Assembly: GCA_902634185.1 (NCBI GenBank)
Contig: CACPJC010000002.1
Location: 96,001 to 160,000, forward strand
Length of the DNA: 64,000 nucleotides
Reading direction: 5' to 3'
Origin: an uncultured Candidatus Actinomarina sp.
GTDB lineage: Bacteria; Actinomycetota; Acidimicrobiia; Actinomarinales; Actinomarinaceae
Position 1 is the stretch's first letter, and every line of letters starts with the position of its first letter. The translations under genes and the position numbers were made by a program. Below, piece after piece: positions 7,105 through 54,240 of the stretch. The notes under the pieces were generated by a model. That model was given only the letters and a program-made list of their open reading frames with translations, had not been told where the DNA came from and made no database searches.

Positions 7105-7192
7105 AAAGCAAAAATCCCGATTGATCTTGCGACCCTTCGGGATTTTCTATTCTATCTCATTTTCGGTCTTGCGACTTCTTTTTTGATAGTGT
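7105..7192 (-). ncRNA. Candidate structured sRNA, copy A
   Basis: Own promoter; CUAUC/GAUAG stem enclosing a GUC-GCAA-GAC hairpin; 3' hairpin AAAAUCCCGA..GGUC-GCAA-GAUC..UCGGGAUUUU plus U-tail; near-duplicate at 8573-8664. Confidence 0.6.
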
Positions 7193-7198
7193 GTATTA

Positions 7199-7258
7199 AA
7201 TGTACAGGTAATCCAATACTTTCGCAAGAAATTCTGTGCTGTTTTTTTCGCGAACTTT
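7199..7258 (-). promoter_or_regulatory. Sigma70-type promoter of sRNA copy A with upstream AAAGTTCGCGAAAA site
   Basis: TTGCGA-17nt-TACATT; 14-mer at 7245-7258. Confidence 0.6.
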
Positions 7259-8572: not shown

Positions 8573-8664
8573 GAAAAAAGCAAAAATCCCGATTGATCTT
8601 GCGACCCTTCGGGATTTTTTATTCTATCTTCTTTTCTATCTTGCGATTTCTTTTCCGATAGTTT
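8573..8664 (-). ncRNA. Candidate structured sRNA, copy B
   Basis: 42 nt identical to copy A (8577-8618 vs 7105-7146); inner hairpin AUC-GCAA-GAU shows a compensatory change relative to GUC-GCAA-GAC. Confidence 0.6.
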
Positions 8665-8669
8665 CTATA

Positions 8670-8729
8670 AATATAGGTATGTAAAGTAATTTACGCAAAA
8701 TATTTTCTAATCTATTTTTCGCGAACTTT
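8670..8729 (-). promoter_or_regulatory. Sigma70-type promoter of sRNA copy B with upstream AAAGTTCGCGAAAA site
   Basis: TTGCGT-17nt-TATATT; 14-mer at 8716-8729. Confidence 0.6.
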
Positions 8730-9183
8730 AATCAGGAATAGCTGATTTTATCTCATTCAATAGGAGTTCTAATTCACGATTATCAATATGTTTTATAACC
8801 ACTGCATATGATTTTTCTTGAAATGAAAAAATAATCGTATCTTCATCTCTTTCTTCAATGTTGGTTATTTCATCTACGGCATTAATTACTGACAGTATTT
8901 TTTCTTGTGTCTTAAGAGCTATTTTTCCATTTTTGATTTCTATAACTGGTTGAAAGAATGCTTGAAGAGAAATAATTATCTGGAAAAAACCAAAAAATAA
9001 AATGAGGTAATAAAGACTTTCCTCTCTATTGTTAGAACCAAATTCTTCAAGATCAAAATAACGTTTTAAAATTTCTCTTAATGGACCTTCTAGGATATTG
9101 TCAATGGAAACATATGAAAGAAAAATACCATTCAAAAGTTTTGAAAAGAATTTATTTTTTTTTCGTAAAAATTTTTTTTCCAT
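8728..9183 (-). CDS. Hypothetical membrane protein
   Basis: 151-aa ORF with hydrophobic segments. Confidence 0.6.
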   Translation of the reverse strand: MEKKFLRKKNKFFSKLLNGIFLSYVSIDNILEGPLREILKRYFDLEEFGSNNREESLYYLILFFGFFQIIISLQAFFQPVIEIKNGKIALKTQEKILSVINAVDEITNIEERDEDTIIFSFQEKSYAVVIKHIDNRELELLLNEIKSAIPD

Positions 9184-44741: not shown

Positions 44742-44876
44742 TTATGCAGAAAGTGTTTTTCTACCTTTTCTTCTTCTTCTTTTAAGAATTTCTCTGCCAG
44801 CTCTGGTGCTCATTCTCGATCTAAAACCGTGTTTTCTACTTCTTTTTCTATTACTAGGTTGATAAGTTCTTTTCAT
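44742..44876 (-). CDS. rpmH: 50S ribosomal protein L34
   Basis: Manually translated [44 protein letters not shown]. Confidence 0.97.
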
Positions 44877-44943
44877 TTTTCTTCCTGTTTAAACACAATA
44901 TATTAAAAAATTATTTAAACAAAGTAAATTAATATTTAATTTA

Positions 44944-44983
44944 AAAGTTCGCGAAAACAAAACCATCTTCGCGAAAACAAAAC
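44944..44983. repeat. Direct repeat TTCGCGAAAACAAAAC x2 (20-bp period) in the rpmH-dnaA intergenic region
   Basis: 44948-44963 and 44968-44983. Confidence 0.85.
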
Positions 44984-45147
44984 TAACTAGGTTTTATAAT
45001 ATGAAATTCACTTATTATTTTTCTTATTATTTCCTCTAATAAACTCAACAATCGTTGGGTTTTTAGTTGGTGTGTGTTTGTTTTCTAAAAATTAATATGT
45101 TTTTACCACTCTATGATTTCCGAAGAGGTTTTATTAGATTGTTCAGA

Positions 45148-46452
45148 ATGAGTAATTTACTTAAAGAGTTTAAATCTGAAATACACAAACTAGATTTATC
45201 TAAAACTGAAAGATATTGGTTAGAACAAGTAAATTTTGAAATTGACAATGAGTCTTTAAGTATTTTCGTAGGATCAGACTTTGTAAAATCATCAATTGAG
45301 AAAAAACTATATAAAAAAATCAAAAAAACATTCAACATAAGCACGGGATTTAAAGAATGTGTTTTTGTTTTGGATAAGAATATGAAAAAAGACTTTCAAG
45401 CCTATGAATTTGAAGAAAAAAATGAAGATCTATTAAAAAATCAAGAAGAGATAAAAAAAGTTCAGCCTGATTTATCTGTTTTTGACGAGATGTTTGTCGG
45501 CTCCTCTAATAATCTTTCAGTAACGGCAGCAAAAAATGTTGTTAAAGATCCTGGTGGACGTTTTAACCCTCTTTTTGTTTATGGATCTCCGGGGGTTGGT
45601 AAAACACACCTTCTAAAAACTATTGAAAAAGCTCACCCCTCTTCTTTTTATATTGATTCTGAATCTTTTTTAGATTCATATATTCAAGGAATAAAAAATA
45701 AAGATATAGATATATTTAAATCAAAAATAAGGTCTGTCGAAATTTTACTAGTAGATGATATTCAGTTTTTTATGGGTAAAAAGGGTGTTTCAGAGGAGCT
45801 TTTCCACACTATTAATTATTTTTTAAACAATCAGAAAGCGGTTGTTTTGGTTTCAGATCAAAAACCAAATAAACTTTTAGGCTTTCCGGGTCGCCTAATT
45901 TCAAGAATTTTAAACGGTTTAGTTACTGACATTGAAAAACCTGATGAAGAAATGTTTCTTAAAGCAATTGAGAAAGCAAATGTTGAACAGGGCGGTTATT
46001 TGCTTTCTAAGGAAGAGATTAAAAAAATAAGTGGGTTAAGGGTAGATAGTTTTAGAGATATAAACGGAATTGTTAACCAACTCTTAATAAATAAACAAAC
46101 AGGAAAGGGTAATTTCGATTATATTAAGGAGTTGACTTCTGTTTCTAAGTCGGGATTTGTAGAGTCTGTTGGTCCTGATCAAATATTAGATTACGTTTCA
46201 AAGGTTTTTCAAGTTGATAAAAACCTCATATCTTCAAAAAACAGAACATCGAAGGTTAATGAGTCTAGGAGGCTTTTTGCATCTCTGGCAAGGAAACATA
46301 CAGACCTATCATTAAATCAAATAGGTTTGTATCTTGGTGGAAGAAGCCACTCAACAGTTTTAAGCTATATTGATAAATCTAAAGACTCACCTTTAGTTAT
46401 CAAAGAAATAAACAATTTCGACAGTTCACTCTCAATAAAAGAGGTTGGTTGA
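45148..46452 (+). CDS. dnaA: Chromosomal replication initiator DnaA
   Basis: FNPLFVYGSPGVGKTHLL, LLVDDIQF, EELFHT, GGRSHSTV; start placed at ATG 45148. Confidence 0.92.
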   Translation: MSNLLKEFKSEIHKLDLSKTERYWLEQVNFEIDNESLSIFVGSDFVKSSIEKKLYKKIKKTFNISTGFKECVFVLDKNMKKDFQAYEFEEKNEDLLKNQEEIKKVQPDLSVFDEMFVGSSNNLSVTAAKNVVKDPGGRFNPLFVYGSPGVGKTHLLKTIEKAHPSSFYIDSESFLDSYIQGIKNKDIDIFKSKIRSVEILLVDDIQFFMGKKGVSEELFHTINYFLNNQKAVVLVSDQKPNKLLGFPGRLISRILNGLVTDIEKPDEEMFLKAIEKANVEQGGYLLSKEEIKKISGLRVDSFRDINGIVNQLLINKQTGKGNFDYIKELTSVSKSGFVESVGPDQILDYVSKVFQVDKNLISSKNRTSKVNESRRLFASLARKHTDLSLNQIGLYLGGRSHSTVLSYIDKSKDSPLVIKEINNFDSSLSIKEVG

Positions 46453-53090: not shown

Positions 53091-53118
53091 TTTTTGCTAC
53101 ACTTAACCACTAAATAAA

Positions 53119-53260
53119 CAAAGTAACAAAGCGAAGCTAGTGAGAATCTAGCGCTGTCCCGCAACTGTGATTCGAAAGATAAGTCAGGTCGACTTTATTA
53201 CTTTTTACAACAATCCTCGAGAGAAGGAATGGAGTATCGTACTTTTTCTCGTGGTGAGAA
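53119..53260 (+). ncRNA. Cobalamin riboswitch (compact form)
   Basis: GCGAAGCTAGTGAGAATCTAGCGCTGTCCCGCAACTGTGA...AAGTCAGGTC core; upstream of a BtuF-like gene. Confidence 0.85.
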
Positions 53261-53268
53261 AGGAAAAT

Positions 53269-54240
53269 ATGAAAACAAAAATACTTCTTCTTGCCATGAT
53301 AATTTCAATGTGTGGAGGCACGTCTGACGAAGGTAATGAAAAAAATATTATTTCATTATCAACCACGCATACAGAAATTATTCAAATGCTTGAAGCTGAG
53401 AATCAGCTAATTGGTGTTGATTCGTTCTCAGAGACAGAACTTCCAATAAAAAAAATAGATGCCTATACAGTTACAGCAGATGAGCTTCTTTTACTCAATC
53501 CAGATATTGTAATCGTTGCTTTTGATTTTAACGGTATCGTAGAGGGATTAGAAAATTTAAATATTGAATATGCTCTTCTTCCACCTGCACAAAATTTGGA
53601 TGACGTTTATTACCAAATTGAAACCATTGGGACAATTATTAACAAAGAAAATACAGCAAGTTCTCTAGTTTTAGAAATGAAATCTGACATTGATGAAATT
53701 ATTGAAAACTCAGCAACTGAATCTATATCTGTTTATCACGAAATTGGTTACACATATGGCATATATTCAATAAATGAAAATTCTTTTTTAGGAGAAATTT
53801 ACAATATTCTTGGTGTAAGCAATATTGCAGATAAGACTGAGGACCCGTACGGATCTGGTTACCCACTTCTTGAAGAAGAACAGGTCTTAAATGCAAACCC
53901 TGATCTAATTGTAATTGGACACTCTGACTTTTTGAATAAAGACATCTCAACAAGACAAGGCTGGGATGGTCTTAATGCCGTATCAAATGAGAATGTTTAT
54001 TTCCTCGATGAAAACTTAGCAAATAATTGGGGTGTAAATACTGTTGATTTGATAAATACATTATCTGAAATAACAAAATTTAATGAAGATCCTGGTTTAG
54101 TTTATAAAGCAAAATATTTAGAAAGTGATCTTGGCAGCTCAGACAGTACTCAAAACATCATCATTGCAACAATAATTGTGATAATCTTGACAGCGTACAT
54201 ACTTATTACGAGAAGGAATAAGAGTAAAGTACAAAGTTAA
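53269..54240 (+). CDS. Cobalamin ABC transporter substrate-binding protein (BtuF-like)
   Basis: IISLS..HTE, LIGVD, LNPD.V; riboswitch; start moved to the ATG after AAAGGA. Confidence 0.8.
   Translation: MKTKILLLAMIISMCGGTSDEGNEKNIISLSTTHTEIIQMLEAENQLIGVDSFSETELPIKKIDAYTVTADELLLLNPDIVIVAFDFNGIVEGLENLNIEYALLPPAQNLDDVYYQIETIGTIINKENTASSLVLEMKSDIDEIIENSATESISVYHEIGYTYGIYSINENSFLGEIYNILGVSNIADKTEDPYGSGYPLLEEEQVLNANPDLIVIGHSDFLNKDISTRQGWDGLNAVSNENVYFLDENLANNWGVNTVDLINTLSEITKFNEDPGLVYKAKYLESDLGSSDSTQNIIIATIIVIILTAYILITRRNKSKVQS

Follow-up and report, generated by a model that had tools for sequence, protein, structure and literature searches.

A short oriented DNA word, TCGCGAAAA, is found twice in the gap between rpmH and dnaA and once upstream of each of two small RNA (sRNA) genes in a 64,000-nt stretch of an uncultured Candidatus Actinomarina sp. 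(positions 96,001 to 160,000 of contig CACPJC010000002.1, assembly GCA_902634185.1; the window means this whole stretch). We consider it likely that this 9-mer is an oriented cis-regulatory box, the putative site of an activator-type, sequence-specific protein with a small replication-linked regulon. Binding by a protein and activation are what we infer from the sequence of the word, its conservation, its positions and the set of genes that it precedes. The uncultured Candidatus Actinomarina combines a genome of about 1 Mb with a very small number of regulators (the genome studied here has 974,068 bp in 16 contigs, with about 33% GC), and a box common to dnaA, nrdJ and the most conserved sRNA family would be a handle on the coupling of replication and expression in a streamlined cell.

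The evidence that carries this reading is conservation. In the genus, TCGCGAAAAA stands at a constant distance from the predicted -35 hexamer in 36 of the 37 distinct sRNA copies taken from 30 loci (the exception is L048_1602), and the 20 nt between box and -35 differ among these copies. Upstream of dnaA the box is doubled, with its two copies 20–21 bp apart, in 21 of 22 genus loci (L009 has a single copy) and in 56 of 60 further genus genomes, once per genome; the pattern written backwards, as a control, matched in one of these 60. A first-pass annotation of the window had proposed a regulator's binding site linking the rpmH–dnaA gap to the expression of the sRNAs. A word that is letter-perfect amid diverged flanks at the sRNA genes, at the genus dnaA loci and in distant high-GC relatives argues for such a site, and the same conserved box at both places is consistent with such a link. 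The gap and the sRNAs stood as members of the gene set, which turned out to be wider than claimed: in this genome nrdJ and a WhiB-like gene belong to it as well, and relatives add dnaB and longer non-coding RNAs.

The genome has 10 exact copies of TCGCGAAAA, compared with 1.5–3.1 expected (Markov), and 6 of the 10 are located within the 9.6% of the genome outside open reading frames (ORFs) of at least 100 aa. These six sites are two at dnaA, one at each of the two sRNA genes, one at a WhiB-like (Wbl) gene (50 nt ahead of its start codon) and one at an nrdJ-like gene, i.e. a class II ribonucleotide reductase gene identified by its translation and by 71–73% identity to long orthologues. All six TCGCGA hexamers found outside ORFs in this genome have the A-run. 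The remaining four copies of TCGCGAAAA are intragenic. The short rpsN gene contains one of these; another (G000:C3:47433, minus strand) lies within the DNA-binding domain of an OmpR-type response-regulator gene, where it encodes conserved R-E-K, and is probably coincidental.

The conserved unit is best described as this oriented, asymmetric 9-mer rather than as the palindrome TTCGCGAA, because the T ahead of the 9-mer varies. Position counts across sites give TCGCGAAA(A) as invariant and the preceding base as variable: at the sRNA sites this base is T in 24 and C in 8 out of 32, and at the second box (box 2) of the genus dnaA loci it is T in 9 and C in 8 out of 17. Box 1 at dnaA is the exception and always reads GTTCGCGAAAA, with T immediately before the box in 20 out of 20 distinct genus sequences and G one base further out in 19 out of 20. 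The first-pass annotation had put the motif as a 14-mer, AAAGTTCGCGAAAA, with a palindromic core; it was right about a conserved word, but the unit is TCGCGAAAA. We confirmed the 14-mer at 44944–44957 (plus strand), 7245–7258 (minus) and 8716–8729 (minus). All three sites are non-coding, as had been noted, the last of them sharing 2 nt with the stop codon of the ORF at 8728–9183. A search of the window with up to two mismatches returned these three exact sites only (shuffled sequences gave a mean of 0.87, and at least three matches in 5 out of 100 shuffles), and three exact copies compare with 0.003–0.008 expected per genome (Markov orders 1–5, whole genome). The palindrome TTCGCGAA has four copies in the window, at 7247, 8718, 44948 and 44968 (shuffle mean 0.33; four reached in none of 100 shuffles). 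Genome-wide it has six sites, which make 12 when counted on both strands, compared with 3.1–9.5 expected (Markov orders 1–6); the 8-mer on its own is therefore only mildly enriched. CGCG had been called rare in this DNA, which is true against base composition (308 seen, 1373 expected) but not against a dinucleotide or trinucleotide background (398 and 341 expected, respectively). These counts bear on a reading by chance and shared ancestry, in which the word came to the sRNA copies through duplication of their promoter and turned up at dnaA by coincidence. That the two sRNA loci are paralogues and that the 8-mer is only mildly enriched would suit it; it is hardly credible, however, given how rarely the exact 14-mer is expected and how the word is kept where adjacent bases have diverged, and the presence of the box at independent genes across the genus and in distant families already contradicts it.

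The two sRNA genes of the window and their promoters are located as follows.

7245..7253, minus strand: box TCGCGAAAA of sRNA copy 1, exact match.
7199..7227, minus strand: predicted promoter of sRNA copy 1, with TTGCGA (7222–7227), 17 nt and TACATT (7199–7204); TCGCGA is 20 nt upstream of the -35.
7107..7192, minus strand: sRNA copy 1, about 86 nt with predicted ends, fold z-score -4.4.
8716..8724, minus strand: box TCGCGAAAA of sRNA copy 2, exact match.
8670..8698, minus strand: predicted promoter of sRNA copy 2, with TTGCGT (8693–8698), 17 nt and TATATT (8670–8675).
8578..8663, minus strand: sRNA copy 2, about 86 nt with predicted ends, fold z-score -3.9.

Copy 1 carries two hairpins, one at the 5' end (inner GUC-GCAA-GAC) and one of terminator type (inner GGUC-GCAA-GAUC). 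In the sequence as read, 17 nt separate the end of the 14-mer from TTGCGA in copy 1 and from TTGCGT in copy 2, exactly as first annotated. The two loci are 82% identical over 223 alignment columns, with the box word kept and the next 17 bases different. Of 22 other genus genomes, 20 have the sRNA together with its upstream region (2–7 matches each), and in Rfam the sRNA matches no family at the gathering or E-value thresholds. A cytochrome P450 gene (7271–8545, minus strand; Pfam E-value 3e-55) is located between the two copies.

By eye, the box sites share a recurrent layout: TCGCGA, 20 nt (19 nt at nrdJ of the genus itself), a -35-like hexamer, 16–18 nt and a -10-like hexamer of the form TAnnnT. 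It is present at the sRNAs, at nrdJ (in the genus itself and in G028, G023 and G037, three distant relatives), at dnaB of G037 and at non-coding RNAs of G028 and G023, with the following hexamers.

sRNA copies of the window: -35 TTGCGA and TTGCGT, spacer 17, -10 TACATT and TATATT.
nrdJ of the genus itself, 19 nt from the box: -35 TTGAAA, spacer 16, -10 TATAAT.
nrdJ of G028: -35 TGGTCA, spacer 18, -10 TAGGGT.
nrdJ of G023: -35 TCGCCC, spacer 17, -10 TAGTGT.
nrdJ of G037: -35 TTGCCT, spacer 17, -10 TAGACA.
dnaB of G037: -35 TTCGGG, spacer 17, -10 TACACT.
Non-coding RNAs of G028 and G023: -35 TTGTGT and TTGCGA, spacer 17, -10 TACTTT and TACGTT.

Counted from the predicted -10, the TCGCGA core falls at about -61 to -52 (near -61 to -56 with the hexamers listed here), and the second box, where present, is 20–21 bp further upstream. 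About -61 is the usual location of class I activator sites (CRP, for example, is centred near -61.5, and tandem sites are one or two helical turns further upstream), and it is for this position that we read the box as a putative activator site. An element that sets promoter strength and is contacted directly by RNA polymerase (UP-element-like, or a second contact of the sigma-region-4 kind) might occupy similar ground: the core overlaps the distal UP-element zone, an A-run follows the core, and TCGCGA is one letter away from the -35 TTGCGA of sRNA copy 1. We regard such an element as improbable. UP elements are A+T-rich and loosely conserved, between -40 and -60, whereas the CG-rich core of the box is invariant from 33% to 67% GC genomes; about five promoters per genome have the box; and none of the 10 exact genome sites precedes an rRNA operon, a ribosomal-protein operon other than rpmH, or other genes expected to be strongly expressed.

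Within the genus, the non-genic box sites of G008, G010 and G012 match those of this genome: two at dnaA, the sRNAs, nrdJ (three out of three) and the Wbl gene (two out of three). The nrdJ leader (G000:C6:3000-3070, locus L114) also has an NrdR-like word, ACACTATATTTAGTGT, between the predicted promoter and the start codon, and this word is kept in the same three genomes; given ACACTATATTTAGTGT plus the box, nrdJ would be under two controls. The gene beside the box-controlled Wbl gene (L115, G000:C2:68300-68790) has a C-terminal stretch that by eye resembles a SelB-type winged helix.

Outside the genus we looked at distant relatives of the same class that belong to other families and have genomes of 2–3 Mb with 57–67% GC. 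A TCGCGAA pair, 19–20 bp apart, is found in the rpmH–dnaA gap of three out of eight (G037, G028 and G033), where it lies 93–113 bp from the start of rpmH. Of the four distant genomes with an nrdJ gene, three have the box upstream of it (G037 has two copies 21 bp apart), and upstream of dnaB it is present in three out of five (G028, G023 and G037). The complete TCGCGAAAA is found at 14 of the 18 distant sites. G028 has 32 copies of TCGCGAAAW compared with 12 for the backwards control. The strict double box occurs in 5 out of 401 genomes of the phylum (the genome studied here, three others from its class, and one among the roughly 370 not in the class), and is thus nearly confined to the class. 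Matches to a looser pattern (TCGCGAA-N12-14-TCGCGAA) in high-GC genomes are mostly of unknown or coding status, and only the genus tally and targeted loci were used; the loose tallies include G252 and G271, which are flagged as unpublished and on which no individual claim depends. One box in G028 (L154), beside DnaA-box-like words, was dropped, as it falls in the last codons of an asparaginase-like ORF.

A double box with a promoter also precedes a conserved stretch of about 500 nt without a convincing ORF in G028 (L143:1501-2100) and G023 (L144:1501-2050). The stretch has many short hairpins capped by GCAA or UUCG and a long terminator-like hairpin at its end, and in G028 it includes GGUCGCAAGACC, a hairpin word also present in the Actinomarina sRNA; these RNAs may be larger relatives of that sRNA. 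For G028, G023 and G471, the non-coding stretches behind the box gave no match in Rfam. In G028 a shorter unit with its own box (L165) is located just upstream of the stretch of about 500 nt.

In the window, the rpmH–dnaA gap and its two genes contain the following features.

44949..44957, plus strand: box 1, TCGCGAAAA, which together with the flanking bases reads GTTCGCGAAAA and so includes TTCGCGAA.
44969..44977, plus strand: box 2, TCGCGAAAA, 20 bp after box 1.
44984..44989, plus strand: hexamer TAACTA, 9 nt past the TCGCGA of box 2; a -10 candidate or part of the site.
44995..45000, plus strand: TATAAT, a -10-like hexamer read from the sequence, 20 nt past the TCGCGA of box 2; one candidate dnaA promoter.
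44900..44928, minus strand: candidate rpmH promoter, with TTTACT (44923–44928), 17 nt and TAATAT (44900–44905); the palindromic core of box 1 is 20 nt away.
44742..44876, minus strand: rpmH (ribosomal protein L34; Pfam Ribosomal_L34, E-value 2.4e-22), first gene of rpmH-rnpA-yidD-yidC.
45148..46452, plus strand: dnaA (Pfam Bac_DnaA and Bac_DnaA_C), with the helix GGRSHSTVLS (usual form GGRDHTTV).

The TCGCGA cores start at 44949 and 44969, and the 20-bp period given by the first-pass annotation is exact. On the rpmH side of this genome the layout is that of the sRNA promoters (box, 20 nt, -35, 17 nt, -10), and the distance from the core of box 1 to the rpmH ATG is 77–78 nt in all 21 genus loci having the pair. 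On the dnaA side, TAACTA is kept across the genus loci inspected (TAATTA in one locus), and a T[AG]TAAT or CTATAA-like hexamer is found at the distance of TATAAT in 16 out of 21 genus loci and is missing in 5. Taking TATAAT as the -10 would make box 2 overlap the -35 zone and put box 1 near -58. RNA contigs from three of four runs (three studies) have rpmH-operon ends at 44932, 44849 and 44861 and dnaA starts at 45031, 44990 and 45147, and in the fourth run one contig spans the gap; being assembled contigs, these data cannot place a transcription start and were not used as evidence. The genes yidC-yidD-rnpA-rpmH are on the minus strand, and dnaA-dnaN on the plus strand are followed by ORFs of gyrB and gyrA size (judged by size, not by a domain scan). 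The gap, at which gene orientation changes, is a presumed origin region: the cumulative GC-skew minimum of the contig, which is noisy, lies about 11–16 kb away and does not pin the origin to it. Further along the window, an adenosylcobalamin (AdoCbl, B12) riboswitch (53106–53238, plus strand; Rfam RF01482, 60.6 bits) is located at the start of or ahead of the ORF at 53167–54240, whose GTG start is inside the match.

The doubled palindrome of the gap might instead be a structural or epigenetic signal, in the form either of an origin cruciform or hairpin or of TCGCGA methylation that times dnaA expression after replication, for which GATC/SeqA and GANTC/CcrM are precedents. The two TTCGCGAA copies can pair, and a scan found the resulting 12-pair hairpin on the minus strand (44975–44948) with a T-rich tail after it; TCGCGA is, moreover, a palindromic hexamer of the kind that methyltransferases read. 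Yet most sites are single boxes that cannot form the hairpin, and a C before box 2, as in half of the genus, cuts the stem to 6 bp. Methylation would leave the A-run and the fixed distance to the -35 unexplained, and the 34 copies of TCGCGA (both strands) equal the Markov expectation of 33.8–36.6 (orders 3–4; lower orders give higher values), with no avoidance or excess. A signal of either kind is very unlikely. Reading the doubled palindrome as an intrinsic terminator was rejected too: no gene ends there, i.e. the hairpin has no upstream gene to terminate, and the single boxes elsewhere cannot fold.

A divergent DnaA had been suggested in the first-pass annotation as the protein that binds the word. 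The box would then be this protein's DnaA box, through which the initiator autoregulates dnaA and controls nrdJ and the sRNAs; a regulon of dnaA and nrd genes is typical of DnaA in model bacteria, and the word is a 9-bp asymmetric site doubled beside dnaA. No canonical DnaA box (with up to one mismatch) is found in the rpmH–dnaA or the dnaA–dnaN gap of the window. The DNA-binding helix reads RSHST[VI] (G[GN]RSHST[VI][LI]S) in all 20 full-length genus proteins (L001–L020; window 46290–46330), compared with [RK]DHTTV...H in all eight distant relatives of the class, a form that to our knowledge is near-universal; the base-contacting positions D433, T435 and H439 (Escherichia coli numbering) are changed, and the genus DnaA box may differ from the textbook one. 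The suggestion is nevertheless not borne out in the relatives: G037, G028 and G033 have a canonical RDHTTV helix and TTGTCCACA-like boxes near dnaA, and the TCGCGAA pair is in the same gap, so the box is older than the DnaA change. The DnaA box 9-mer has the consensus TTATCCACA or TTGTCCACA, which TCGCGAAAA does not resemble; a constant distance to the -35 is a feature of promoters, not of origins; and there are just two copies near dnaA. With these points in view we give a DnaA box a small chance.

Returning to the putative activator, we considered several other protein families as its identity. WhiA was rejected, as its HTH_WhiA domain (PF02650) is found in none of 39 genomes of the class (G000–G038, 18 of them at least 90% complete), in a Pfam search in which control genomes matched; the box is also without GACAC, the WhiA motif. 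Wbl proteins are present all the same (three in G000), and the class seems to run them without WhiA. Of the two OmpR-type regulators and three Wbl proteins encoded in this genome, none is linked to the box. The box-controlled Wbl protein is nearest to WhiB3 among solved structures (E-value 5e-16, compared with 1.6e-11 for WhiB). A Wbl protein is unlikely as the binder at -61, because Wbl proteins sit on sigma region 4 beside the -35 (according to the excerpted parts of PMC10243135). An MtrA or other OmpR-type binder, considered because MtrA targets dnaA and oriC in mycobacteria, was set aside too: MtrA is phylum-wide, whereas hardly any genome outside the class has the strict double box, and neither regulator is linked to the box. 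Direct-repeat sites of OmpR or Streptomyces antibiotic regulatory protein (SARP) type consist of heptamers with an 11- or 22-bp period and need two half-sites; here single boxes are enough at most promoters and the doubled period is 20–21 bp. NrdR boxes, 16-bp palindromes (acaCwAtATaTwGtgt type) that precede nrd genes in tandem, were rejected because the word differs and the NrdR-like word of the nrdJ leader is separate. Among the inspected G028 sites no regulator gene stood out beside a box (the coding test, based on GC at third codon positions, is noisy).

Several observations weigh against an activator site with a regulon of this kind. The transcription starts used to place the box come from hexamers alone, and a consensus promoter scan called neither sRNA promoter; in the gap it called ATGAAA-18-TATTAT at 45001–45030, which is neither the candidate dnaA nor the candidate rpmH promoter. 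dnaA departs from the standard layout, as the hexamer 20 nt after box 2 is -10-like and not a -35, and its geometry fits an activator pair or a repressor equally well. One of the RNA contigs begins at 44990, upstream of the TATAAT hexamer. Related genomes are not independent samples, and in G008, G010 and G012 the 7–8 copies of TCGCGAAAA per genome are barely above the 3–7 of the backwards control. The pair is missing from the dnaA gap in five of the eight distant genomes (one locus is cut by a contig end), the Wbl orthologue has no upstream box in five out of five distant genomes, and dnaB has none in this genome. Single-mismatch variants of TCGCGAAAA are not in excess outside ORFs (16 out of 112, genome-wide), and the regulon was therefore not extended with them; the site is strict and the regulon is small.

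In the mechanism that we propose, a putative activator bound at TCGCGA, 20 nt upstream of the -35, would contact RNA polymerase in the class I manner, with an optional second box 20–21 bp further upstream. Its regulon in this genome would consist of dnaA (with two boxes), the B12-dependent nrdJ, one WhiB-like gene and the multicopy sRNAs of about 86 nt, and in the relatives with larger genomes of dnaA, dnaB, nrdJ and the longer hairpin-rich non-coding RNAs. The pair in the gap may serve both divergent units, box 1 toward the rpmH promoter and box 2 near the dnaA core promoter. The likely job of such a regulon would be to tie replication initiation, the replicative helicase and the supply of deoxynucleoside triphosphates to the output of these RNAs. 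A bolder version, possible but doubtful in our judgement, is a replication master switch run by a novel activator in an apparently WhiA-less class, with one box co-driving dnaA, dnaB, nrdJ and the hairpin RNAs. If true, bacteria would have a counterpart of the eukaryotic G1/S CGCG-box regulons, the sRNAs serving as a post-transcriptional arm, and the organism that runs it would be among the smallest and most abundant free-living bacteria of the ocean. What is new here is the link of the box to dnaA, nrdJ and dnaB, its fixed geometry, its conservation at high GC and the related longer RNAs. Full-text searches of the literature found no description of the motif among the matches listed, with relevance judged from titles and the openings of abstracts; a differential RNA sequencing (dRNA-seq) paper on the Red Sea, in its excerpted parts, mentions Actinomarina only as possibly lost on filters (PMC5069720). 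The box and its layout persist in relatives with cultivable-size genomes of 2–3 Mb, so the binder can be sought there, and the function of the sRNA family becomes approachable via its co-regulated genes.

The box shares features with several known systems. Like class I activator sites, it is short, stands upstream of the -35 with constant spacing and on one helix face, has an optional second copy about two turns upstream and is common to a few promoters. The CRP site, however, is a 22-bp palindrome of two half-sites, whereas the box is a 9-mer made of a 6-bp palindromic core and an A-run, and activation here is putative. DnaA boxes are likewise 9-bp asymmetric sites repeated beside dnaA, and the DnaA regulon likewise has dnaA and ribonucleotide reductase genes, but the box has a word unrelated to theirs and a fixed promoter geometry. 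NrdR boxes, too, are found upstream of nrdJ, and in some taxa they also precede replication genes; here TCGCGAAAA is separate from and additional to ACACTATATTTAGTGT. WhiA offers an actinobacterial parallel, in so far as the excerpted parts of two papers describe it: GACAC(GCC) is bound by a sigma-4-like C-terminal domain upstream of the -35, and WhiA and WhiB2 of Mycobacterium tuberculosis activate dnaB and dnaE1 (PMC13473873, PMC10243135). On that description, both systems have a short asymmetric motif upstream of the -35, dnaB among the targets and a Wbl gene involved. They differ in that the box word is unlike GACAC, its spacing is fixed whereas that from the WhiA motif to the -35 is variable (in the part of PMC10243135 concerned), and the box-controlled Wbl protein is closest to WhiB3, not to WhiB/WhiB2. 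The CiaR-dependent small RNAs (csRNAs) of Streptococcus resemble the sRNAs described here in being encoded by paralogous genes that have their own promoters and a common upstream box, which is also found at protein-coding genes; the Actinomarina box differs in its additional presence at dnaA, nrdJ and dnaB and in its class-wide conservation.

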